Below, piece by piece: positions 7,080-49,451 of a stretch of 64,000 nucleotides of DNA. The DNA is taken from the IMG/VR virus record IMGVR_UViG_3300050821_018098. One strand, 5' to 3'. The notes beneath the pieces were generated by a model. That model was not told the origin of the DNA. It saw only the letters and a program-made list of their open reading frames with translations, and did not search any database. The stretch's first letter is position 1; each line of letters opens with the position of its first letter. The DNA comes from a virus. Its lineage: Duplodnaviria > Heunggongvirae > Uroviricota > Caudoviricetes. The translations under genes and the position numbers were made by a program.

Positions 7080-9389
7080 TTGATGAACATATTACAATAC
7101 ACAACATCTACAAGTGGTACTATTACTTCACAAGATACACAACAAGATCTTCATATAATGCATGATGCCGGAGTCACAGCATCTCTTACAATAACTTTAC
7201 CTGCTACACCATTTAATGGACAAGAAGTAAAGATAACAAGTGTTAATGGAATATCATCATTAACATTAACTACTGGGGTAGGAACTATAGCAAACAATCT
7301 AACATCATTATCTGTTGGTGAATCTATAATATACAAATATCTTTCAAATCAAACAAAATGGTATTTAATTACTTCTATATCAGATATCATAGTCCCAAGA
7401 AGTAATCTACTTGCTGAATATAGATTTGATGAAGGTAGTGGTACTACTTTAACTGATTATTCGGGTAATGGAAATAATGGTACTTATGTAGGTAGTCCTA
7501 CTTTTATAAGTGGTGGTGGGTTTACCGCTTCTGGTTCTAGTTCTCCAGTCCAATATGCAACAGGTCATGCTAATTTTATTTTAACGGCACAGACTATTTA
7601 TCTAGTTTATAGCCCTGATGCTGATTCAGCTTCTACCAACCATCCGATAATGGGTAACAGTGGCGGTAATACTTATTTACAAATAGATCAATCAGACAAT
7701 ACTAATAATTCTCAATTTCCATCAGCTCATTTGTATGGTGGTACTGGATCAGGTTCAAGTGGAAAATGTTATAGTAATGATACTATACCATTATCACCAG
7801 CTATTGTAGCAGTTACTATAGATACAAATAATGCTATTCAAAGTCAAATATTTATAGAAGGTAAAGAAGTATTATCATATAATAGTAGAGCATTGAATAT
7901 TGCTTTAGGTCGAGGTGGTACACCTTGGTTTGGTGGTAATAATATAGGAAATTCTTTTGGTACATTCAACGGTAATATTTATTATGCTGCTTCTTATTCT
8001 ACTTTTCATACAGCTTCACAAGTATTACAAATTACTAATACAATAAGACAGTTATTGAATAACAGAGGAACAGTAAAACAAGATGTATATCAACCTTCTA
8101 CTTTAACTGGTCAATTACTAGCATTAGGTGATAGTATAACATGTATTAATGGAGTAGGTGGAGTAACACCTTATCTTAATAGTATAAGTACTAGAATAAC
8201 TTTCAATAAATATATTAAAGGATGGCCAGGTAATAGTTCCCAATTAGTATATGCAGCACCTGGATTATCATCTTTATATTATGCTCCGGCAGGGTCTTAT
8301 AATATTGTTAGTATTTTTCTTGGTACTAACATAATAAGTAATCAAAGTTTATATGAAGCTTGTTTTGAGGGTATAAAATCCATAGCTAAAGAATTTAAAA
8401 GAAAAGGCTGGCAAGTTTTAGTATTTACAATACCCGATAGAACTAATACCTACTCTTACATGGCTTCCTATAATGGATTATTAAGATCTTCTTTTACAAG
8501 AGATGAAATTGTTGATATAGCTGCTGATCCAAGATTAGGTACTAGTGGGGCTTCTACTAACCTTACTTATTTTCAAGCAGATCAAGTACATCCTACTAAT
8601 ACATCACAACTGTTGATAGCAGATTATTTATCAGCAAAAATCAATAGAATTACTAATTTCTCTATTGATAATAAAACATTATACTCACAAATTAACACAA
8701 GTACAGTCACAAATACTACTACAGAAACCTCAATAGTAGGTACATCTTCTGTAAATGATGTCGAATTCAATAATAGTGTATTCCTGTGTAATACTACTAA
8801 TGGTAATAATGTATTATCTGGACCTTTCTCAACTTCACAATTAGTAGTTGGTCAATTAATAACAGGTGCTGGAATCCCTACAAATACTACTATATCTAGT
8901 ATAACAGATAATAATCACTTGGTAATGAGTAATAATGCTAGTTCTAGTAATTCCAATACTGCTACAACATTTAGTTATATAGCAATGAAGCGACACTTTT
9001 TTGTTCCAGGTCAAATTATTGTTTTTGAACAAAAAGGATTGTTAACCACTGGAGTTTCACAAACTTTAAATAGAAAAGTAAAAATTGGAACTACTGTATT
9101 AGGTTCTACAGGTATAGTTACTTTACCTTCTAGTTTAACCAGTGCATTATATAAAATGAATTTAGTAGTTACCTGTGTTACAATTGGTACTTCTGGGACT
9201 TTTCAGGTACAAGGTGATTTATCAGTATATAATGGAAGCAATGGATACAGTATATACCCAATTTCAAATACTAGTGTAGTTACACTAGATACTACAATAG
9301 ATTCCATAATAGATATTACTGATATATGGGGATCTGCAAGTGCAAGCAATATCGATACATCAACAAATTTAAATATAATCAAATTATAA
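7080..9389 (+). CDS. tail fiber / receptor-binding protein with LamG-like (concanavalin-A-like) lectin domain and SGNH/GDSL hydrolase (esterase) domain
   Basis: N-terminal about 95 aa paralogous to fiber tip domain; LAEYRFDEGSGTTLTDYSGNGNNGTYVGSPTF (LamG_3-like); LLALGDSIT (GDS) and ADQVHPT (DxxH) SGNH motifs. Confidence 0.6.
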   Translation: MMNILQYTTSTSGTITSQDTQQDLHIMHDAGVTASLTITLPATPFNGQEVKITSVNGISSLTLTTGVGTIANNLTSLSVGESIIYKYLSNQTKWYLITSISDIIVPRSNLLAEYRFDEGSGTTLTDYSGNGNNGTYVGSPTFISGGGFTASGSSSPVQYATGHANFILTAQTIYLVYSPDADSASTNHPIMGNSGGNTYLQIDQSDNTNNSQFPSAHLYGGTGSGSSGKCYSNDTIPLSPAIVAVTIDTNNAIQSQIFIEGKEVLSYNSRALNIALGRGGTPWFGGNNIGNSFGTFNGNIYYAASYSTFHTASQVLQITNTIRQLLNNRGTVKQDVYQPSTLTGQLLALGDSITCINGVGGVTPYLNSISTRITFNKYIKGWPGNSSQLVYAAPGLSSLYYAPAGSYNIVSIFLGTNIISNQSLYEACFEGIKSIAKEFKRKGWQVLVFTIPDRTNTYSYMASYNGLLRSSFTRDEIVDIAADPRLGTSGASTNLTYFQADQVHPTNTSQLLIADYLSAKINRITNFSIDNKTLYSQINTSTVTNTTTETSIVGTSSVNDVEFNNSVFLCNTTNGNNVLSGPFSTSQLVVGQLITGAGIPTNTTISSITDNNHLVMSNNASSSNSNTATTFSYIAMKRHFFVPGQIIVFEQKGLLTTGVSQTLNRKVKIGTTVLGSTGIVTLPSSLTSALYKMNLVVTCVTIGTSGTFQVQGDLSVYNGSNGYSIYPISNTSVVTLDTTIDSIIDITDIWGSASASNIDTSTNLNIIKL

Positions 9390-9390
9390 T

Positions 9391-9684
9391 ATGCATGTAT
9401 TACAATACACAACAGTAACAAGCGGAACAGTAACAGCACAAGATACAGGACAGGATGTACAATTGATACATGATGCTGGTGTTACAGCCACTCTTACTAT
9501 AGCTTTTCCAGTAACAACTTTTAATGGTCAAAAATTTGGCGTAATGAGTGCTGGTGGAATTACTACACTTACATTAAGCGTAAGTGCTGGTAGTATCACA
9601 AATGCTATAAGTACATTAGCAGCTGGTGGTTGTAGTACTTATCAATATGTAACAGCACAATCAAAATGGTATAAAATATATTAG
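9391..9684 (+). CDS. small fiber-domain paralog (97 aa), possible fiber adaptor/assembly or receptor-binding accessory protein
   Basis: Whole protein aligns with N-terminus of the 7080 ORF (MHVLQYTTVTSGTVTAQDTGQD...HDAGVTATLTI...) and more weakly with the C-terminus of the 1862-aa fiber. Confidence 0.5.
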   Translation: MHVLQYTTVTSGTVTAQDTGQDVQLIHDAGVTATLTIAFPVTTFNGQKFGVMSAGGITTLTLSVSAGSITNAISTLAAGGCSTYQYVTAQSKWYKIY

Positions 9685-9691
9685 ATAAATA

Positions 9692-9724
9692 AAAATCCTT
9701 TGTCGGCAAGGACAAAGGATTTTA
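9692..9724 (+). terminator. rho-independent terminator
   Basis: atcctttgtc-ggcaag-gacaaaggat perfect 10-bp stem followed by ttt, directly after stop of 9391..9684. Confidence 0.7.
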
Positions 9725-9957
9725 GGTATTTAAGTGATAATCTCTAATATTTATACACAAATATACTTACTAAATATTCAAATTCCTAATTATAACTACT
9801 TAATTTATAATAATATATGAAATAACTTATAGTTAAACTTCAACTCACCACCGGTAGTTAACTCATTTACATATTCTTGTATTATAAGAAGTTCTAATCT
9901 TATGTTATAAAATTCATCTGTTAAATACAATATATACATAAAATAAAAACTAACCAA

Positions 9958-10308
9958 ATGAATAAATATGTTCTTAATTTTGAGCAGTTTGTAAAAGAAA
10001 GCCAAAATATTGAAACCAATGAATTCTTTAGTTTTAAGAAAAAAGAATTATCACCTATACAGGAAGAATTAGATATGTTTTTAGATATCATAGGAAGTCT
10101 GGATGTGAAGTTTGACAGTTTATATGATATATCGGAAGCAGAAGCTAATAAAGCAAAAACAATAGCTGAACTTATGCATATAGTAAATAAAGTTCTAAAA
10201 GAATTAAAAGAAGTAAACTTTTTAAGTCCTGATGATATAAATGTAAAAGATAGTCTTGAAATTTTCAAAGAAGAGCTTGCTTCTAAGTCTATAGCAATGA
10301 ATGTTTAA
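9958..10308 (+). CDS. small acidic hypothetical protein with CTS-like N-terminus (MNKYVLNFEQFVKE)
   Basis: 116-aa ORF followed by terminator; N-terminal motif shared with five other ORFs. Confidence 0.4.
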   Translation: MNKYVLNFEQFVKESQNIETNEFFSFKKKELSPIQEELDMFLDIIGSLDVKFDSLYDISEAEANKAKTIAELMHIVNKVLKELKEVNFLSPDDINVKDSLEIFKEELASKSIAMNV

Positions 10309-13379: not shown

Positions 13380-15215
13380 ATGATAAATGATAAAATACAA
13401 GGTACCATAAACCATAAAAATATTGATTTTGCTTTGGTAGAATTTGAAGATGGTGGTTCTCTTAAAGTAAAAAGTAAAAGCCTTAATAAGGCTCTACATG
13501 GAGATCTTGTTGAAATAGGTATAGAAGGTAAAGAATACTTTGTAAGTAAAATAATTCAAAGAAGTATACAACATAAAATTAAAGGACAATTAAAAATAAA
13601 TAAAAATTTAACTTTTTTTGTTCCTCAAGAATCAAATTATTATACAGATTTCTTCATACCAACAAAGTTTTATCTCCAAGGTATGGATGATAAAGATTAT
13701 GTAACAGTTGAATTTTTAAGCTGGGGTGATAAAGATAAGAATCCAACAGCGAAGATTTTAAGTATAGATGGTAACAAATTTACACCAAGGATAGCTACTA
13801 AATTTTTAATCAATGAAATGAATCTTAGGACAGATTTTCCTAATTCTGTTATAGCCCAGGTAGAAAGAATTGAAATTACTGATGATATGTTAATAGGTCG
13901 AAAAGACTTTAGACAACATTTAACTTTTACAATAGATCCAGCAACAGCCAAAGACCATGATGATGCAATATCAATAGAAAAAACAGATAAAGGTTATAGG
14001 GTTGGTATTCATATTGCTGATGTGTCAGCTTTTGTTACACCAGGTACAGCTTTAGATATTGAAGCTTTTGAAAGAGGATGTTCTGTCTACTTAGTGGATG
14101 AACATATACCAATGCTTCCAGAAAAACTATCATCCGATCTATGCAGTCTTATACCAAATGTAGATAGATTATCTTTTTCTGTAATATATGATATAAGTAA
14201 TGAATATAAAATTGAAGGTTACTGGGTTGGAAAAACAATTATTAATTCAAATGAAAATATTTCATATGAAGAGGCCCAAGCAATTTTAGACGATAATGAA
14301 CACAAGTATCATGAAACATTATCTATTTTAAATGATATAGCAGAGTATTTTACTAATACTAGAGAATCTATAGATTTAGAGGCTCCAGAACTCGAATTTA
14401 CACTTGATGAACAAGCATTTCCTATAAAAATAGGTTTGAAAAAAAGACTTGCTACACATAAGTTGATAGAAGCTTTTATGCTTATGGCTAACCAAACTGT
14501 AGCAGAAATACTTAGTAACTATGGTCCAGGTATATACCGAGCACATCCTAAACCAAGCAAACTACAAATATTAGAAATGTATGATTCATTAAAAAAAATG
14601 GGTCTTACTTTAAATTTAAGTGAAGAAGATATAAAGAAAAGTTTGGATGAATTAAAAAGTAATACTCCAGAAGAATTAACTTCTACTGTTCGTGATACTA
14701 TTCTTAGGAGTCTACCAAAAGCCTATTATACTTCAGATGTTGAGGTAGGACACTTTGGTTTAGGGTTTAAATATTACACACATTTCACATCGCCTATAAG
14801 AAGATATCCTGATATCATCGCACATAGATTATTAAATTGTGTAATAGAAAAGAAACAATCTCTTATAACAGATCTTGAATCTAAAGCTGTACTTTTGAGT
14901 AAACGTGAAAAAGTTGCTCAACAAACTGAAAGAGAATCAAGCAGCCAAAAAATGACATTGTTTATGGAGACAATTAATTATCCCATATCAGCTAAAATAG
15001 TAAGTATAAAAGATTGGGGTGTATTTGTGAAGACTGAATTATTATCCGAAGGACTCATACCTATTCATAGTCTGAAAGGTAAATATAAAGATGGTGTAAT
15101 GAAATGCCCCAACTTTACGCTAAAAGTTAATGACTATCTAGTTGTGAAAAAAGAAAGATGTGATTTAAAAAATAGAAGAGTTTATTTCGAACTATTACAA
15201 AAGAAAATTTACTAA
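13380..15215 (+). CDS. RNase II / RNase R family 3'-5' exoribonuclease (RNB domain + C-terminal S1)
   Basis: RNB motifs DDAISIE, GIHIADVSAFV, SVYLVDEHIPMLP, HFGLGFKYYTHFTSPIRRYPDIIAHR; C-terminal S1-like VKIVSIKDWGVFVKT. Confidence 0.8.
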   Translation: MINDKIQGTINHKNIDFALVEFEDGGSLKVKSKSLNKALHGDLVEIGIEGKEYFVSKIIQRSIQHKIKGQLKINKNLTFFVPQESNYYTDFFIPTKFYLQGMDDKDYVTVEFLSWGDKDKNPTAKILSIDGNKFTPRIATKFLINEMNLRTDFPNSVIAQVERIEITDDMLIGRKDFRQHLTFTIDPATAKDHDDAISIEKTDKGYRVGIHIADVSAFVTPGTALDIEAFERGCSVYLVDEHIPMLPEKLSSDLCSLIPNVDRLSFSVIYDISNEYKIEGYWVGKTIINSNENISYEEAQAILDDNEHKYHETLSILNDIAEYFTNTRESIDLEAPELEFTLDEQAFPIKIGLKKRLATHKLIEAFMLMANQTVAEILSNYGPGIYRAHPKPSKLQILEMYDSLKKMGLTLNLSEEDIKKSLDELKSNTPEELTSTVRDTILRSLPKAYYTSDVEVGHFGLGFKYYTHFTSPIRRYPDIIAHRLLNCVIEKKQSLITDLESKAVLLSKREKVAQQTERESSSQKMTLFMETINYPISAKIVSIKDWGVFVKTELLSEGLIPIHSLKGKYKDGVMKCPNFTLKVNDYLVVKKERCDLKNRRVYFELLQKKIY

Positions 15216-29401: not shown

Positions 29402-30574
29402 ATGTATCGTAATAACACAGATAAAAACTATCTTGATCTCATAGACTTGATTTATAATCAAGGTGCTACAAAAAGCGATAGAACTGGTACTGGTACCATA
29501 TCCTATTTTGGTCACCAAATGCGATTTAACCTTCTAGAAGGTTTCCCACTAGTAACAGTTAAGAAAACATTTCATAAAGCAATCACACATGAATTATTGT
29601 GGTTTTTAGATGCTGTTGATCCCTATTACAAAGATTATGGTAATACCAATATTAAATATCTTGTTGATAATAAAGTATCAATATGGAATGAGTGGGCTCT
29701 TAAACCATATCTGGAAGCTACAGGTAAAGGACATATTAAACCAAATGCTCCTGAATGGGAGTCTGTCTGGAATGATGAAATGAAAATATTTGTAGAAAAA
29801 GTAAGAACTGATGATGTATTTGCGAAACAGTGGGGTGAACTAGGTCCTGTATATGGTAAACAGTGGACAGATTGGGGTGGTTCAATGCAAATGCTTCCAA
29901 TGCCTGGAACACAAGATGAATATTTTGGAGGATCGTTTGGTGGACCAACACAAGTAAATTTTGCACCATTATCTCTACAACATATTAAAGGAATCAATCA
30001 AATAGAAAATGTAATACATAAACTACGTAATCGTCCCGATGATAGACGTATAATTGTTTCAGCATGGAATGTTTCTGAAATAGATCAAATGGCCCTTCCG
30101 CCATGCCATGCCTTCTTTCAATTTTATTCTTTCGAAATGACTAATGAAGACAGAGTTAAAAGCTTTACACAGTGGGCTCTTAAACATGGTTATGATATAA
30201 CTGGAATGTCCACAGAGAACGCCTTGATACATTATAATTTTCCAAAAAGAAAACTCAATCTACAACTATATCAAAGATCCGTAGATGTCTGCATTGGTTT
30301 GCCATTTAATATAGCTAGTTATGCGTTAATTTTGGAAATGATAGCTCAAGTTACGGATCATTTAGCTTTTGAATTTATACATACTTCAGGAGATGCACAT
30401 ATTTACCTTAATCATATGGATAGTATTGCTGATTTTAAAAATAATGAATCATACCCATTACCAACATTATATCTGGATAGAAATATAAAAGAGCTCTCTG
30501 ATTTCAGAATTGAACATATTAATATAAGTAATTATCAAAGCCATCCTTATATACCACTCAAAGTAGCTGTATAA
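29402..30574 (+). CDS. thyA: thymidylate synthase ThyA (with about 45-aa insertion)
   Basis: DRTGTGT, FGHQMRFNL, DRRIIVSAWN, active-site PCHAFFQFY, QLYQRSVDVCIGLPFNIASYAL (Asn retained, so dUMP-specific). Confidence 0.9.
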   Translation: MYRNNTDKNYLDLIDLIYNQGATKSDRTGTGTISYFGHQMRFNLLEGFPLVTVKKTFHKAITHELLWFLDAVDPYYKDYGNTNIKYLVDNKVSIWNEWALKPYLEATGKGHIKPNAPEWESVWNDEMKIFVEKVRTDDVFAKQWGELGPVYGKQWTDWGGSMQMLPMPGTQDEYFGGSFGGPTQVNFAPLSLQHIKGINQIENVIHKLRNRPDDRRIIVSAWNVSEIDQMALPPCHAFFQFYSFEMTNEDRVKSFTQWALKHGYDITGMSTENALIHYNFPKRKLNLQLYQRSVDVCIGLPFNIASYALILEMIAQVTDHLAFEFIHTSGDAHIYLNHMDSIADFKNNESYPLPTLYLDRNIKELSDFRIEHINISNYQSHPYIPLKVAV

Positions 30575-34847: not shown

Positions 34848-36098
34848 ATGGCAAAAGGAAAAAGTCTTAAGAAGTTTGAATTCTCCCAGATCGGTAAGAT
34901 TATGGAGCAAGCAAGCGAAGGAAAACACGTTATTATTAATAATTCTCAAAAAAGAGAATTTATCCCAACAAGTATCTATATACTCAATGCACTTTTAAGT
35001 GGTTCCCTATTACATGGTGGTATCCTCACTAACCGTATTACAATTATGGCCGGGGAAGAAGCTACTGGTAAATCTTATCTATGTTATCACATAGGTAGAG
35101 AAGCTCAGAAAAAAGGATATAAAATTATTTATATTGATACAGAGGGATCTATTGAATTAGATGATTTTGCTTCACATGGTATTAAATCAGATCCAGATAA
35201 TTTAATGTTGGTAGATTGTTCAGTTGTTGAAGATCTTACACACATACTAGCCAACTTACTTAGTAAATTACAAGAAGCAAAAGATCAAGGTTTTGAACTT
35301 GAGAAAATTATTATCTTCATTGATTCTCTTGGTCAGCTTTCTTCAAGAAAAGAAAAACTAGTTGCTATTGAAGGTAAAGATACTCTAGATATGACTCGTG
35401 CTAAAGCAATCAAAGCACTCTTCCGTATTGTAAATAGTGATTTGAAACACTTAGGTATTCCAATGGTTTGTACCAACCATACCTATAAATCACAAGATTT
35501 TATTCCTACAGATATCATGGGTGGTGGTAAAGGTCCTTATTACTCAGCATCACATATTGTATTCCTTTCTAAAGCTAAACTTAAGACTGGTGAGGAAGAT
35601 GATTTAGATCTTGGTCAAACAGGTATTATTGTGACAGCTAAAGCTATTAAAAATAGGTTAGCTAAACCTAAGAAAGTTAAGTTTCATATATCATTTGATG
35701 CCGGAACCAATCCTTTTGTTGGTCTTGACTTCTTTTGTTTGCCAGCTGTATACAAACAAGTTGGTATCGCCAAAGGAAAACCAAAAATTACATCAGATGG
35801 AGAAGAAACTTTTGAAGAAGGTGGTAATCGTTGGTATGTAAGACATCTTAATAAGCATATTACAGCTTCCGAATTATTTACAGCTAAAGTATTTACACAA
35901 GAGGTATTAGAAGCCCTGGAGCCTCTTATTTATGAATATTTCAGATACAAAAATCACGAAGAAGTTGAATCAATGCTTAAAAACTTTGAAAAACTTATCG
36001 ATGAAGCTGAAGTTAAAGCAAGTAAAATGACTAATAGTAAGAGTATGACTGAAATTACAGCAAGTGATTTTGATGAACAACTCGATAGTGATGAATAA
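34848..36098 (+). CDS. uvsX: UvsX/RecA-family recombinase
   Basis: Walker A AGEEATGKS, Walker B IIFIDSLGQL, and VCTNHTYKSQDF...GGGKGPYYSASHIVFLSK matching the T4 UvsX TNHTYE...GG..YSA region. Confidence 0.75.
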   Translation: MAKGKSLKKFEFSQIGKIMEQASEGKHVIINNSQKREFIPTSIYILNALLSGSLLHGGILTNRITIMAGEEATGKSYLCYHIGREAQKKGYKIIYIDTEGSIELDDFASHGIKSDPDNLMLVDCSVVEDLTHILANLLSKLQEAKDQGFELEKIIIFIDSLGQLSSRKEKLVAIEGKDTLDMTRAKAIKALFRIVNSDLKHLGIPMVCTNHTYKSQDFIPTDIMGGGKGPYYSASHIVFLSKAKLKTGEEDDLDLGQTGIIVTAKAIKNRLAKPKKVKFHISFDAGTNPFVGLDFFCLPAVYKQVGIAKGKPKITSDGEETFEEGGNRWYVRHLNKHITASELFTAKVFTQEVLEALEPLIYEYFRYKNHEEVESMLKNFEKLIDEAEVKASKMTNSKSMTEITASDFDEQLDSDE

Positions 36099-39638: not shown

Positions 39639-40994
39639 ATGGAAATATCAGTAACACTTGAAAAAGCTTTCTTTAAATTTATTCTAGATCATCCTTCTTA
39701 TTATTTCAGAGTTGATGTTGCAAATTTTAATAATAAACAAATAGGATTCGTCTATCAAGTAATACAAACCTATTATAACGCCTGTAAAAATGATCCCCAT
39801 GTACCAAAGCCACGTAAGATTGTTGAACTGGTTCGTATGTATGATCCTGAGAATCGTGTCACAGATGATGTAATAAAATCACTTTTAACATTTGACCTTT
39901 CACAATTTATACAAAATGAAACCGATGACTGGTTAGAGACTCAATTAAAATCATGGTGTACAATACACAATTTCACATCAAGATCTGTTCAGGTAATCGA
40001 GAAAGTAAGAAGTCTTAGCAGTGATACAATGTCCTGGGGAGATATACAAAAAGTAATTGATGAAGTTAAAGAACTTGTTATAGATCCTACAATCACTACT
40101 TTCAATGATGATAATTTAGGACTCGATTTTGACAATCCTGAGGATCACTTTCAAAATGAAGAATTTAATAAAATTAAAACAGGATGGGATTCTTTAAATG
40201 AGCAACTCAATGGTGGTTGGAAAAGAAAAACAATGACTGTTCTTGCCGGACCATCAAACGTTGGTAAATCTCAATGGTTGTGTAATATAGGGGCCAATTG
40301 TGCTGATATGGGATACAATGTTCTTTATGTAACCTTGGAGATGTCCGAAACTGATGTATTAGCAAGGGTTGGTTCTAAAAGATTAAGAATACCTATAGAT
40401 GATTATGCTACAGCAAGCAAGGATCAATCAGCTATGAAAGAAAAAATCCTTGCACTTAAAAAACGTGGAGCAAAAGGACTTAATAATTTATACGGAGATA
40501 AAATAGGAAAATTTCTTGTTAGAGAGTTTGCTACTGGATCAGCAAGAATCTCAGACATCGATCAGTACATAAAAGGTCTCCAAGATAAAAAAGGTATAAA
40601 AATCGATGTTATCCTTGTCGATTATCTTACAATTATGTGCCCTAATAAAGCAGATGAGAATTTATACATCAAAGGTAAACAACTATCTGAAGGTTTAAGA
40701 GCAATGGCTAAAAAGTATGAAGCTGCTGTAATCACTGCTGTACAAGTTGGTAAAGAAGCATGGAATACAAATGATATGGATCTGGCTGATGTATCAGAAT
40801 CAAAAGCAATTGTTGAAACTTGCGACTTACTTTATGGTATTATTCAAAATGGTAAAATGAAACGTGATAAGAAATATCAATTAAAGCTTCTAAAAATTAG
40901 AGCAGGGGCCTTCAAATGGGAGCGAACAAGTTTTGATTTTGATTCGGTTTATCTTGATATTATCAACGATGTTAAAATTTTAGAACAAAAATAA
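39639..40994 (+). CDS. DnaB-like replicative DNA helicase (T4 gp41 / T7 gp4 helicase-domain family)
   Basis: Walker A LAGPSNVGKSQWL, Walker B ILVDYLTIM, ITAVQVGKEAW (H3/Q motif), N-terminal helical domain; 451 aa. Confidence 0.8.
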   Translation: MEISVTLEKAFFKFILDHPSYYFRVDVANFNNKQIGFVYQVIQTYYNACKNDPHVPKPRKIVELVRMYDPENRVTDDVIKSLLTFDLSQFIQNETDDWLETQLKSWCTIHNFTSRSVQVIEKVRSLSSDTMSWGDIQKVIDEVKELVIDPTITTFNDDNLGLDFDNPEDHFQNEEFNKIKTGWDSLNEQLNGGWKRKTMTVLAGPSNVGKSQWLCNIGANCADMGYNVLYVTLEMSETDVLARVGSKRLRIPIDDYATASKDQSAMKEKILALKKRGAKGLNNLYGDKIGKFLVREFATGSARISDIDQYIKGLQDKKGIKIDVILVDYLTIMCPNKADENLYIKGKQLSEGLRAMAKKYEAAVITAVQVGKEAWNTNDMDLADVSESKAIVETCDLLYGIIQNGKMKRDKKYQLKLLKIRAGAFKWERTSFDFDSVYLDIINDVKILEQK

Positions 40995-44853: not shown

Positions 44854-45837
44854 TTAAAACTCAACGGTATCATCAAAGCTTAAATCATTCTCTTCTTTTG
44901 TATTACCAGTATGAGCCTTTTTGTAATCACTTACTCTCTTCTCAAAGAAGTTCGTCTTACCCTGAAGACTAATAAGCTCCATAAATGGAAAAGGATTAGC
45001 TGTACCGAATACTTTACTGTATCCCAGGTTAACTAACCAAAAATCAGCTACAAACTCTATGTACTGAGACATAGCTGTTGCATTCATACCAATTAAAGAT
45101 ACGGGCAATGACTCTGTAATGAATTCTTTTTCTATCTCTACAGCACTCAATATAATTTCTTTTACTCTTTCTTCTGTAAGCTTGTTTTCAAGCATAGAAT
45201 AAAGAAGGCACGCAAACTCACAGTGGAGCCCTTCATCACGGCTTATAATTTCATTAGAAAAAGTTAGACCAGGCATAAGTCCTCTTTTCTTTAACCAGAA
45301 GATAGAGCAGAAAGAGCCGGAGAAGAAAATTCCTTCAACAGCAGCAAATGCAATAAGTCTTTCTGCAAAACTATCAGCTTTAATCCAACGAAGTGCCCAA
45401 TCAGCCTTTTTCTTTACAGCTGGTAAGTTTTCATGAGCATTAAAAAGCATATCCTTTTCTACGGGATCTTTTATATAAGTATCAATAAGTAGAGAGTATG
45501 TTTCTGAATGTATATTCTCCATCATAATTTGAAACCCATAAAAACATTTAGCTTCAGGAATTTGAACTTCTTTTAAGAAATTTTCAGCAAGATTTTCGTT
45601 TACAATTCCATCAGAAGCAGCGAAAAAGGCTAGAACATATTTAATAAAATGTCTTTCATTATCATTAAGTTCTTTTTCCCAATGTACCTGATCTGGAGAT
45701 AAATCTATCTCTTCGGCTGTCCAAAAAACAGCCTGACAATCCTTATACATTTTCCATATTCGATCATATTTAATCGGAAAAAGAACAAATCTATTTTTGT
45801 TCTCCATTAACAAGGGCTCCATTATCTGTTTATTCAT
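44854..45837 (-). CDS. nrdB: ribonucleotide reductase class Ia small subunit (R2/NrdB)
   Basis: [39 protein letters not shown] iron-ligand/tyrosyl-radical motifs; likely start at MNKQIME (track ORF extends to 45885). Confidence 0.9.
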
Positions 45838-45944
45838 ACTAAAATATTTTTTATTTTTTACAAAGATATAAAATAAAAGCATCACTTTTATATGATGCTT
45901 TTAAAAAATTTTTAATTACATAACTTATTGATTATCAATAAGTT

Positions 45945-48900
45945 CTATGATCCACAAGCCTCACAATTTTCTGGATTATCAAGTGAACAGGATAGTTGAC
46001 TACTAGATTCATCTTCAGTAATTGTTGTAAGTATATCTACTTTCACTGTAGCTTTTTGCTCTACAGTAAATTGAACAGCATCAATACCGGTTTGTGTTCT
46101 TAGATAATACATACCTGTTTTTAAAGCTTTTTGTGGTGTAGTACCATATTTAACATCTAACTCAGATTTAGTAACTCCACCACCCCATCCATAGAAATGC
46201 ATACCATTAAGTTTAGCAAAATTAGGATCTTTCATATAGATATTCATTGATTGTGTTTGATCCATATAAGCTCCACGATCAGCATATTGATCAATAACAT
46301 CTTTTTGACTAATTTCCCAAACTGTTTTGAAAATATCTTTGATATCCTGAGGTATAATATCTATATTTTGTATAGAACCTTTACCACGAATAATCTCATT
46401 CTTCATTGCTTCAGTCCAAAGGCCTCTTTCACAAAGAGTTTTAACTAAATATTTATTTAATACAACAAATTCACCTGAAAGAAGTCTTCTTGTATAAATG
46501 TTAGAAGTTTGAGCTTCGCAACTAGCTTCATTACCAAATATACTTGCTGTTGAAGCTGTAGGCATAGCACAAGTAATCAAACTGTTTCTTATACCATACT
46601 GTTTAATTTTATCTTTTAATGCATCCCAATCGTATCTACCTGGTTCTGGAACTATATTCCACATATCGAATTGAAGAGTACCTTGTGATGCTGGAGAGCC
46701 TTCAAATGTTTCATAAGGACCATCTTTTTTAGCCAAATCACAAGATGCTTTCATAGAAGAATAGTAAATAGTTTCAAATATTTGTTTATTTAAAATTTTT
46801 GCTTCTTCTGAGGCAAAAGGAATTTTTAATTTGAAATATACATCAGCTAAACCTTGTACTCCAAGCCCGATAGGTCTGTGTTTCAAATTAGATTTTTTAG
46901 CTTCTTCTACAGGATAATAGTTAATATCAATAACTTTATTCAAATTAACTGTCGCAACATAAGCAACTTCTTCCAATTTTTTAAAATTAAATGTACCATC
47001 ATCTTTAACAAATCTTGGTAAACATAATGATGCAAGATTACATACAGCTACCTCATCAGGAGCAACATATTCAACGATTTCAAGGCATAAATTCCCATTT
47101 TTTATAACACCAATATTTTTTTGATTAGATTTTACGTTAATCGAATCTTTATAAGCAATATATGGAGCACCAGTTTCAATTTGAGATTCCAATATTTTTT
47201 TCCATAGATCCCGAGCTTTAACTTGTTTTTTGAACTTACCTTCCAGTTCATATTTTTCATAAAGAGTAACAAAATCATCCCCATAAACATCCATTAATCC
47301 AGGAGATTCATTAGGACACATTAAACTCCATACAAGATCTTTCTCAACACGCTGCATAAATAAATCACACATCCATATAGCAGTAAACAAATCTCTTGTA
47401 CGCATCTCTTCTTTACCATTATTCTTTCTTAAATCAAGAAAGTCAAATATATCAGCGTGCCATGGTTCTAAGTACATGGCAAAACTTCCTTTCCTTTTCC
47501 CACCCCCGTTATGAGCTAAACCTATATGTGTAACATACTCATGATTTGTGTCTATTTCAAAATCATATACATTCCCAGCATACTTCGTTTTATTAATATC
47601 AGTAATTCTTGTATAAAGATAATTATCATGCACCATGAAGTTAACCCATTCACCAACTTCTATATTAAACAAATCAGCAATATCTTGAACTTTAGGTATT
47701 CTTATACAGTAACTAACTTTAGCATGTTTACGACCAGATGTATACTCGATATTTCTTCTGTCTCTGATATAACCGGAAGTAAATATACCAAACCGCATTA
47801 ACATATATCTTGTAGATTCAATTACATTTCTTGAAGTCATTTCCAGAGTCAATTCTTTAGAAATACATCCATCAGAGAGCATTAAGCCTTTAAACAAACC
47901 AAGACTTTTATCTTTTGGTAAATGTAAAAGATTTTTATGTATTATTTTTTCAGCATTATGATCATAAAAATATTCCCTATTAAATTTAAATCTTTCGTTT
48001 ATACAAAAATAAATTACTGTCATATTAGGATGATATGTATCATCTAATATAGAATATTTTATTATGTTATCATTAAGATACTGTTCAACAAAAGCTAAAG
48101 CTTCTATATCAGTATTTTCTAAATATATTTTACACTCTGTACTTTCTTTATTAATATACCCATCACCAACAATAATACCATACATTATAGCATCACTAAC
48201 AGAAATACTCGAAATATCTTTTTCATAATTCACTATTGGTGTTACTAGAAAATCATCAACCTTCAAATCTTTTGTTTCAATCCATTCAGGTTTTATTATT
48301 CCTTTTTCCAACCTGTTTTTAATAACAGAATAATTTACGCCTTTCTCTTGTTGTAAAGTAAACATTGGATGTTGTGTTGTAACAATTACTGGATCGATAG
48401 AATGTTTTGTTTCAATAGCAAGAAAATCTTTATGTTGAGCTGGATAACGTCTTGTTCTAAGGACTTCTTGAAATGTTCCATCACTAGTTAAAACTTTATC
48501 ACCTATTACTATTTTACCTATTTGTTTTGGTCCTTCAATAGTATAAATAATAGTTTCATAAGCGAAACACTGATCTACATAGCGAGCTGTGTCATTGTAT
48601 ACACGAAGCATTGGTACAATACCGTTAGAAGTACCATTGGTACCTTTAATATAGGATCCTGTTGCTCTAATATTAGAAATAGAAATTCCTATACCACCAG
48701 CAGCTTGTGAAATTTTAGCACATTGTTTTAATGTGTCATATATTCCATCTATTGAATCGTTTTTCATTTGTAATAAAAAACATGAGCTCATTTGCGGCTT
48801 TTGCGTTCCAGCATTGAATAAACTAGGTGTGGCATGTGTGAAATAAAACTGTGAAATTAAGTTATATGTTTTGATTGCACTCTTAATATCTTTACCATGA

Positions 48901-49451
48901 ATACCAACAGCAGTTCTCATAAAAAGATATTGGGGTCTTTCTATAATTTTCCCGTCAATTTTTAATAGATAAGATTTTTCTAAAGTTTTAAATCCCATAT
49001 AATCCAAAAGAAAATCTCTTGTTTGAATTATAGCTGCATCTATTTCATCTTTGTTTTCTTGAACTATATCATTGAATTCTTTTGAAACAAGTGGTGCATG
49101 TTCACCATTTTCTTTGTTTACATAATCGTACATTTTCTGAGATGTTTCAGAAAAACTTTTGAATGTTTTTTTGTAGAGATTTGTAATAGCTAATCTCGCA
49201 GCTAGATAAGAATAGTCAGGATGTTTTACTGTTAAAACAGCAGCCGTCTCAACGGCTAAATTGTCTAATTGCTCCGATGTAACACCATCATAAAGACCTT
49301 CTACTACTTTTTGTGCAACCTCACTTGGGTTCACCCATAATCTATCTAAGCTAAAGGTTTCACGCTCAATCCTTCCGTAAATTTTATCAAGATTTACGGT
49401 CTCTTTTTTTCCATTACTTTTAATAACTTGCATATTCGTTTTGTAATCCAT
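45945..49451 (-). CDS. nrdA: ribonucleotide reductase class Ia large subunit (R1/NrdA, eukaryote/T4-like type) interrupted by a 354-aa intein
   Basis: ATP-cone N-terminus; [20 protein letters not shown] | intein | [23 protein letters not shown] matches R1 core; C-terminal catalytic NCxE region and C-terminal CxxC tail (CEACGS). Confidence 0.9.
47508..48569 (-). mobile_element. intein (Hint domain + double-LAGLIDADG homing endonuclease) inserted in nrdA between VDQ and GGGKRKG
   Basis: Block [14 protein letters not shown]..., block [10 protein letters not shown] (TxxH), LAGLIDADG motifs [11 protein letters not shown] and [13 protein letters not shown], block [22 protein letters not shown]; +1 residue is Gly (verified at DNA level: gct cat aac ggg ggt ggg aaa). 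Confidence 0.75.

Follow-up and report, generated by a model that had tools for sequence, protein, structure and literature searches.

The 64,000-nucleotide stretch of viral DNA analyzed here (the window; IMG/VR record IMGVR_UViG_3300050821_018098, Caudoviricetes) carries the gene for the alpha subunit of a class Ia ribonucleotide reductase (RNR), known as R1 or NrdA, and this gene is interrupted by a LAGLIDADG intein of 354 amino acids (aa) with a non-nucleophilic glycine at the first position of the C-extein (+1). The accepted intein mechanisms (classes 1, 2, and 3) all end with Cys, Ser, or Thr at +1, and since the C-terminal Asn of this intein is followed by Gly, the transesterification step and the branched intermediate of these mechanisms are impossible here. 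The same junction recurs in hundreds of independent sequences, which takes the feature far beyond chance, and the intein belongs to a large and old family that occupies one site in class I RNR alpha subunits of bacteria, phages, and giant viruses and mostly carries Gly at +1 (Gly+1). Judged by sequence, everything required for the N-S acyl shift and for Asn cyclization is kept, and what transesterification requires is missing. Our judgement leans, by a modest measure, towards a mechanism in which thioester formation and Asn cyclization would be followed by attack of the freed Gly alpha-amine on the thioester, rejoining the exteins without any contribution from a +1 side chain.

The identity of the host gene and the exact position of the insert are clear from comparison with R1 proteins that have no intein. 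The window protein contains the Pfam domains ATP-cone, Ribonuc_red_lgN, and Ribonuc_red_lgC (E = 6.6e-198), and the class Ia alpha subunit motifs SSCFLL, NLCLEI, YYLRT, and the C-terminal CEACGS (CxxC) are all present. We aligned the protein with human RRM1 (PDB 3hnc/5d1y), and the alignment, with a score of 1057 bits, covers both exteins over their whole length. The alignment comes in two pieces that break at ...RYVDQ(288)↓G(289)GNKRPGAF (the arrow marks an intein junction here and below), and residues 295-648 of the window protein, encoded at 47508..48569, are therefore an insertion. The insertion site, between Gln294 and Gly649, lies in loop 2 of R1, where Q288 and R293 of the yeast and human enzymes serve to read substrate and specificity effector. 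All of the 120 closest intein-free homologs, which are ∼70% identical to the window exteins and come in many cases from Bacteroidota, read RY(V/I)DQGGGKRKG(S/A), an empty-site sequence identical to what ligation of the exteins at Q↓G is predicted to give.

A first-pass annotation of this DNA had located an intein exactly inside VDQ↓GG and had read Gly at +1. Both observations stand, as the break in the RRM1 alignment (Q288↓G289) and the intein-free homologs agree on the site, and rereading of the coding strand again gives aac↓ggg ggt ggg. The same annotation had considered that the true C-extein might begin at a downstream Ser. A shifted boundary or a downstream nucleophile is excluded by the RRM1 alignment, by the Q↓G joint of the empty-site alleles, and by the many alleles that read GGGKRKGAFAIYL, with no Cys, Ser, or Thr in the 12-13 C-extein residues read. 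Elsewhere in the C-extein, the window protein has an insertion of ∼17 aa relative to human RRM1 (46125..46184, minus strand), located just before the conserved Tyr-Tyr radical-transfer pair.

By motifs and predicted fold, the insert itself is built as a class 1 intein, with the exception of the residue that follows it. Every motif that had been read in the 354-aa insert was found again, including Cys1, the block B TxxH, two LAGLIDADG motifs, and the THIGLAHN end (Table 1). Together with the block F Asp/His, the His-Asn terminus, and a predicted Hint fold, these are the features of a class 1 intein, with Gly in place of the Cys, Ser, or Thr at +1. Each LAGLIDADG motif holds a catalytic acidic residue, as in monomeric two-motif homing endonucleases (HENs), and the Pfam family LAGLIDADG_3 is matched above its gathering score (39.7 bits, cut-off 22.5), while the matches of the insert to Hint, Hint_2, and Intein_splicing all fall below theirs. 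An AlphaFold2 (AF2) model of the intein with 15-aa flanks had a pLDDT of 92.1 and a pTM of 0.90, and when this model was searched with Foldseek, the best matches in the Protein Data Bank (PDB) were the HEN-containing inteins TliVMA intein, PI-SceI, and PI-PfuI (E = 7e-18 to TliVMA/PI-SceI). A single-sequence search of the window intein against solved structures gave no match, and a profile of the family gave weak matches only, to PI-PkoII, 2lwy (a domain of the bacterial intein-like, or BIL, type), and gp41-1. Other classes of intein were also considered. A class 3 intein has no N-terminal nucleophile and is marked by a Trp-Cys-Thr motif with a block F Cys, and this assignment was rejected, as Cys1 is present and block F has Asp in 100% of the relatives; a class 2 mechanism was set aside on the same two residues. 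These data confirm that the insert is a real LAGLIDADG intein in nrdA with a non-nucleophilic Gly at +1.

Table 1. Features of the interrupted R1 gene, its intein, and the adjoining R2 gene (positions are those of the window).
Feature	Position	Strand	Basis and remarks
Class Ia RNR alpha subunit (R1/NrdA) precursor gene	45945..49451	(-)	1168 aa including intein; open reading frame (ORF), Pfam, two-segment human RRM1 alignment
N-extein, aa 1-294, ending ...NDTARYVDQ	48570..49451	(-)	Aligns with human RRM1 1-288
Intein, 354 aa, Hint splicing domain and LAGLIDADG HEN	47508..48569	(-)	ORF, Pfam, RRM1 alignment, AF2, Foldseek
N-terminal splicing block	48531..48569	(-)	Cys1 (precursor Cys295) at 48567..48569; 100% kept in 151 Gly+1 and 21 Ser+1 relatives
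Block B VTTQHPMF, Thr64-x-x-His67	48360..48383	(-)	Thr 94%, His 99% in Gly+1 relatives
LAGLIDADG motif 1, GIIVGDG, catalytic Asp136	48153..48185	(-)	Asp in 149/166 full-length Gly+1 inteins; Pfam LAGLIDADG_3
LAGLIDADG motif 2, LMLSDG, catalytic Asp233	47862..47894	(-)	Asp in 151/166 full-length Gly+1 inteins
Block F	47532..47573	(-)	Asp (VYD) 100%, His 88% in Gly+1 relatives
Block G THIGLAHN, His-Asn end	47508..47531	(-)	Penultimate His 97%, terminal Asn 100%
C-extein, aa 649-1168, and stop codon	45945..47507	(-)	Aligns with human RRM1 289-792
C-extein +1 to +3 Gly-Gly-Gly, codons ggg ggt ggg	47499..47507	(-)	DNA read; opposite human G289-G290-N291
Gly+1 (ggg)	47505..47507	(-)	DNA read; aac↓ggg ggt ggg on coding strand, 47499..47510
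R2 gene, intact, adjoining R1	44854..45885		ORF list

The glycine is shared by most of the relatives of this intein. IMG/VR was scanned at the DNA level for the patterns TARYVDQC and HNGGGKRxG (at least 120 loci each), and these scans yielded at least 126 uninterrupted Gly+1 inteins of 148-509 aa at the R1 site, with HN as the last two residues in 124 and with KN and MN in one each. Where both patterns were present, 63 of the 66 loci among the matches listed are intact. When viral sequences were searched with the N-terminal junction only, 120 loci were among the matches listed, the C-terminal junction was readable in 76, and Gly+1 was found in 76/76. When 1.84 billion cluster representatives were searched exhaustively with phmmer, 1573 were hit at E <= 1e-3 and 75 of these at E <= 1e-30. 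At +1, the best 86 matches reaching the intein C terminus have Gly (57 matches), Ser (24), Cys (three, of which one is in RNR and two are at other sites or in other proteins), Glu (one), or Ala (one). Individual relatives (labelled with our own handles, such as L001 and P0001) include L004, a 266-kb viral contig with an intact R1 of 1156 aa whose intein is 41% identical to that of the window and has the junctions VDQ↓CF...THIGLAHN↓GGGKRKGS, as well as L001 (...HNGIVHN↓GGGKRSGSF) and L002 (...NGLVKN↓GGGKRSGSF). The family also extends to cellular genomes. A scan of bacteria and archaea, with one genome per species, gave 460 confirmed stretches, and of the best 80 that were read, 78/80 are intact and all 78 have Gly+1, typically as AVAVNQ↓CF...LAHN↓GGKRKGAVCAYL. 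The bacterial hosts are Gammaproteobacteria, Betaproteobacteria, Chlamydiae, Verrucomicrobiota, Acidobacteria, Actinomycetota, and Bacteroidota, and in the cultured carriers Halomonas ventosae, Halomonas sp. 25-S5, Thiolinea disciformis DSM 14473, and Kribbella strains the ORFs are full-length (1335-1447 aa). Among bacteria, the nearest relatives of the window intein (43-47% identity, YVTHVGVAHN↓GGGKRKGAF) are in Bacteroidota metagenome-assembled genomes and a Neolewinella chromosome (L198-L207), and no known phage in INPHARED has the window intein. Giant viruses carry the same element, where Pandoravirus salinus (intein 1), P. dulcis, P. inopinatum, and Cedratvirus A11 have same-site inteins with a C-extein that starts with Gly, and the catalogued junctions are ARYVDQ↓CF...↓GGGKRKGAF and IRYVNQ↓CF...LAHN↓GGRRKGAA (Green, Novikova and Belfort, 2018; PMC5784728, supplement).

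This distribution bears on one explanation of the glycine, a sequencing or assembly error that turned a Ser, Thr, or Cys codon into Gly, which the first-pass annotation had listed among its possibilities. All that speaks for such an error is the prior expectation of a +1 nucleophile. More than 200 independent uninterrupted copies share this Gly. They come from viral contigs and from bacterial genomes that include complete ones, obtained in different projects and with different technologies, and across 202 loci all four Gly codons are used. We give this explanation a practically negligible probability, and Gly+1 is native and ancient, not an error or a one-off.

A second explanation, that the gene is a decaying pseudogene and all of its homologs are broken, was also rejected, as full-length intact copies were found both by phmmer and by the DNA scans. 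Three word-indexed protein searches gave only proteins shorter than 700 aa, the first of them returning four truncated relatives, and it is because of this length range that R1 relatives look truncated in such searches and that intein-bearing R1 genes can be mistaken for pseudogenes. A few loci do depart from the intact form. In L001 (4400-7100) the Gly+1 intein has a frameshifting deletion, with ∼19 codons and 1 nt absent relative to P0001, L002 likely contains a homopolymer error at 2x coverage, and L003 is uninformative.

Selection has acted on the splicing residues as well as on the endonuclease. In the 151 Gly+1 inteins compared, conservation of the catalytic positions ranges from 88% for the block F His to 100% for Cys1, the block F Asp, and the terminal Asn (Table 1), and it is indistinguishable from that in the 21 Ser+1 relatives. 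The median pairwise dN/dS (NG86, pairs of 60-93% identity) is 0.22 in the splicing domain and 0.20 in the endonuclease, both LAGLIDADG catalytic Asp residues are retained in ∼90% of the 166 full-length members, and mini-inteins of 148-204 aa that have no HEN persist with Gly+1 among the IMG/VR matches listed. The residues for the N-S acyl shift (Cys1 and block B Thr/His) and those for Asn cyclization (block F Asp/His and the C-terminal His-Asn) are therefore under strong purifying selection, and the window intein, judged by these sequence comparisons, is almost certainly functional and appears to be mobile. That one site is occupied in so many phyla and viruses gives indirect support to site-specific cleavage of empty alleles by the putative endonuclease.

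The same R1 genes can also carry a second intein of canonical type, as seen in L001 (SNL↓C...GQ↓CTEI) and in intein 2 of P. salinus (HN↓C; PMC5784728, supplement), and their preservation in intact form implies that a spliced or processed product has been selected for. The second intein of L001, located at SSNL↓CVAPETL...GIITGQ↓CTEI, ends in Gln, not Asn. This ending is like that of the Chilo iridescent virus RIR1 intein.

These observations can be set against the possibility that nrdA is non-functional, or functional only under some conditions, in which case the intein could not be removed, the precursor would be inactive, deoxynucleoside triphosphates (dNTPs) would come from another RNR or from the host, and the element would persist by homing. 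In favor of this explanation, more than one RNR class is present in many bacteria, and the dNTP pools of the host are available to phages. Furthermore, splicing is held to depend on a nucleophile at +1 (PMC4031507; PMC5784728), and the L001 copy has its frameshifting deletion. Against this, the exteins are intact, match human RRM1 with 1057 bits, and retain their catalytic motifs, the R1 gene adjoins an intact R2 gene, and uninterrupted copies dominate in viruses (63/66 among the matches listed) and in bacteria (78/80 in the best 80 of 460). Purifying selection on the splicing blocks and not on the HEN alone (dN/dS 0.22), the persistence of mini-inteins without a HEN, and the intact canonical second inteins in the same genes are also difficult to reconcile with a dead enzyme, as are the cultured carriers. 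An inactive nrdA, which the first-pass annotation had put forward, is thus very unlikely, and even with conditional function included we consider this explanation highly improbable.

The family also contains members that do have a nucleophile. In a neighbor-joining tree of 64 members, the Ser+1 alleles form one broad clade and the Gly+1 alleles (DQ↓GGGKR and NQ↓GGKR), including that of the window, make up the rest. This Ser+1 sister clade occupies the same site, mostly in the form Y(V/I)NQ↓C...GLVHN↓SGKRxGS (P0020, P0024, P0028-P0032, P0043, P0046, and others), and a single RNR allele, P0136, has Cys+1 (FNQ↓...↓CGKRAGS). The nucleophile is therefore present or absent within one intein family. 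The sole differences found between Gly+1 and Ser+1 inteins are at the position six residues before the C-terminal Asn, which is His in 58% of the Gly+1 inteins and mostly Asp or Gln in the Ser+1 relatives, and at the position two before it, which is Ala/Val as against Val, and these may represent phylogenetic noise and not established adaptations. In the window the former position is His348 (47526..47528), which could act as a general base towards the incoming amine, although common descent may be all that it reflects.

The mechanism that we favor would proceed in three steps. Cys1 would form a linear thioester with Gln-1, the C-terminal Asn would then cyclize and release the C-extein with a free Gly alpha-amine, and this unhindered amine would attack the thioester directly to give the native ...VDQ-GGGKR... 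peptide bond. The intein, together with both halves of the RNR barrel, would keep the amine beside the thioester, and neither a branched intermediate nor a side-chain nucleophile would be involved. By reasoning, and not as a result, a flexible and unhindered GGG sequence with both ends in one loop of a folded barrel should favor aminolysis. There is a precedent for the idea in type A BIL domains without a +1 nucleophile, for which ligation through attack of the freed amino group on the thioester has been proposed (reviewed in PMC4031507). The need for a single chain is suggested by a survey of ∼1200 nrdA genes, of which none besides that of phage Aeh1 is split into several coding regions, a result that was read as strong pressure for single-chain NrdA (PMC3045599).

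Several observations weigh against direct aminolysis. The comparison of Gly+1 with Ser+1 inteins revealed no intein residue that clearly compensates for the missing nucleophile, cleavage products dominate in BIL domains, and a Magnetospirillum BIL spliced only after its Tyr+1 was changed to Cys (PMC4031507). Ligation may also not be required, as the two-chain R1 of phage Aeh1 can be fully active (PMC3045599).

The main rival is cleavage without ligation, in which hydrolysis of the N-terminal thioester and cyclization of the C-terminal Asn would both occur, the exteins would never be rejoined, and the interwoven alpha/beta barrel would hold together a nicked, two-chain R1. This explanation draws on the same precedents, since BILs without a +1 nucleophile mainly cleave (PMC4031507) and NrdA of phage Aeh1 is naturally made as two fully active polypeptides (PMC3045599), and in at least 17 viral loci R1 is divided over two ORFs that carry the halves of an intein split at the same site. 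Cleavage alone also needs the same residues (C1, TxxH, and HN), and because of this the conservation data fit it equally well. However, the break would fall in loop 2, beside the residues that read substrate and specificity effector, and the Aeh1 protein is split elsewhere, needs special tails for its assembly, and has no counterpart among ∼1200 nrdA genes (PMC3045599). The position held by the enzyme's own Gly in the Gly+1 alleles is kept as Ser (or Cys) in the sister clade, which suggests that ligation has been selected at the R1 site. In addition, the intein has spread over many phyla, in enzymes that evolved as single chains. On balance we regard cleavage alone as rather less likely than direct aminolysis, yet as the competitor to be taken most seriously.

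Ligation might also be achieved through something other than the Gly alpha-amine, such as a distant side chain of the C-extein that folding brings near, a conserved Lys or Arg, or a trans-acting factor from the host or virus. The window allele does have a Ser at +8 and the bacterial alleles have a Cys at +9. The GGGKRKGAFAIYL alleles have no Cys, Ser, or Thr in the 12-13 residues read, and the conserved Lys at +4 is replaced by Arg in some alleles (GGGRR). Use of a remote side chain would, moreover, leave an ester or isopeptide and hence a branched, non-native loop 2, while a specific helper is argued against because the element works in Actinomycetota, Chlamydiae, Bacteroidota, phages, and giant viruses. 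We rate this route a shade lower still than a non-functional gene.

Taking direct aminolysis as the favored account, the family could constitute a fourth mechanistic class of true inteins, one that would splice efficiently through the freed Gly alpha-amine and whose natural mini and split forms could join proteins, in cis or in trans, to an unmodified N-terminal Gly. This broader proposal is tentative, and we place it somewhat short of an even chance.

The split relatives have an organization of their own. At least 17 naturally split inteins at the same site were found in IMG/VR (L006, L010, L018, L046, L050, L056, L070, L072, L078, L080, L094, L097, L105, L106, L115, L121, and L122), and in each the N-extein and an N-intein of 104-108 aa are followed by a stop codon. 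The C-terminal junction was found in 13, where a second ORF with a Met start encodes a C-intein of 65-70 aa (...(V/I)VHN↓GGG(K/R)RKGS) and then the C-extein. These split inteins at the R1 site are likewise without a +1 nucleophile. The distance from the stop codon to the C-terminal junction is either ∼203-230 nt or ∼1135-1153 nt, and the widely spaced loci (L056, ∼9172-10060; L072, L097, L105, L106, and L122) have a free-standing ORF between the two intein halves. Where it was read, in L056, L072, and L122, this ORF is 296-297 aa long, matches Pfam DUF7487 (E = 1e-18), and contains a ...YPDIFV...EVK... stretch that resembles the PD-(D/E)XK motif of nucleases, and its product may be a homing endonuclease of the kind seen in ‘fractured genes’.

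The remainder of the window, which has a G+C content of ∼30%, encodes a UvsX-like recombinase, a DnaB-like helicase, an RNB exoribonuclease, a thymidylate synthase, and a 5′-3′ exonuclease, along with proteins with ankyrin repeats, an SPFH domain protein, and a CNNM/CBS protein. The UvsX protein is closest to those of the uncultured huge phages LR756501-4 and LR745206 (634-735 kb), with 48-53% identity. On the basis of this gene content (for example at 34848..36098, 39639..40994, and 13380..15215) and of the best UvsX matches, the window is probably part of a huge phage. A eukaryotic giant virus was considered and dropped, as the UvsX-like, DnaB-like, and thymidylate synthase genes and the huge-phage matches point elsewhere. 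The RNR and intein of the window are most like those of Bacteroidota, and the closeness of both the intein and the intein-free R1 to this phylum suggests the host range of the phage and a route of exchange. The thymidylate synthase (29402..30574, plus strand) is 390 aa long and matches its 266-position Pfam profile from end to end, which implies that ∼120 extra residues are present as internal insertions.

A family of homing inteins in a core enzyme, with mini and split forms, breaks the +1 rule, and automated intein surveys list Gly+1 elements without flagging this breach of a textbook requirement. Full-text literature searches, together with reviews and surveys, revealed no discussion of Gly+1 inteins, and although public catalogues already contain sequences of the family, neither the anomaly nor its mechanism appears to have been addressed in the searchable literature. 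In intein technology, the residue required at +1 remains as a scar, which makes this requirement the chief practical limit. If ligation does take place, it would be an efficient nucleophile-free ligation in nature and useful for traceless joining onto an N-terminal Gly. If cleavage alone occurs, class I RNR would commonly be a nicked, two-chain enzyme cut in its specificity loop. Either outcome would be new biology.

Among known systems, type A BIL domains share Cys1, the His-Asn end, and the absence of a +1 nucleophile with the window intein (Amitai, 2003; Dassa, 2004; Aranko, 2013, PDB 2lwy; definition in PMC4031507). The window family differs from them in its conserved HEN, its one fixed site in a core enzyme, its empty-site alleles, and its Ser+1 sister clade. 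The match of the family profile to the BIL structure 2lwy (E = 6.5e-05 over 70 N-terminal positions) is similar to its matches to gp41-1 and PI-SceI, and Pfam gave no PT-HINT match on the window protein. BIL domains are not known to have a homing endonuclease, and the bacterial proteins that contain them are secreted or hypervariable, with the domain in a variable region that is not conserved. Amitai's definition of 2003 is said to specify the lack of a HEN and a place in the variable regions of non-conserved bacterial proteins, and the window intein falls outside it. An entry reportedly listed in InBase as ‘Avin RIR1 BIL’ (Azotobacter vinelandii) is perhaps a bacterial form of the present family, and a literature search for the name found nothing.

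The nrdA-a/mobE/nrdA-b arrangement of phage Aeh1 (Crona, 2011; PMC3045599) resembles the split relatives in that a mobile endonuclease is flanked by the separately encoded pieces of R1. Outside loop 2, by contrast, lie both the Aeh1 split and the split inteins of nrdA described by Dassa (2009), which are found next to the thiyl-radical Cys or between Cys439 and Cys462, and the window intein, unlike these loci, is contiguous. The same-site inteins of the pandoraviruses and Cedratvirus A11 belong to the same family and have the same junctions as that of the window, were catalogued as sequences only, and no comment on the missing +1 nucleophile was found in the main text of that work (PMC5784728). 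With class 1 LAGLIDADG inteins (PI-SceI/Sce VMA1, PI-PfuI, and TliVMA), the window intein shares its in-frame position in an essential enzyme, at a site that is conserved and functional, as well as Cys1, TxxH, the block F Asp/His, His-Asn, the two LAGLIDADG motifs, and the best-matching predicted fold, and it differs from them by the Gly that follows its C-terminal Asn.

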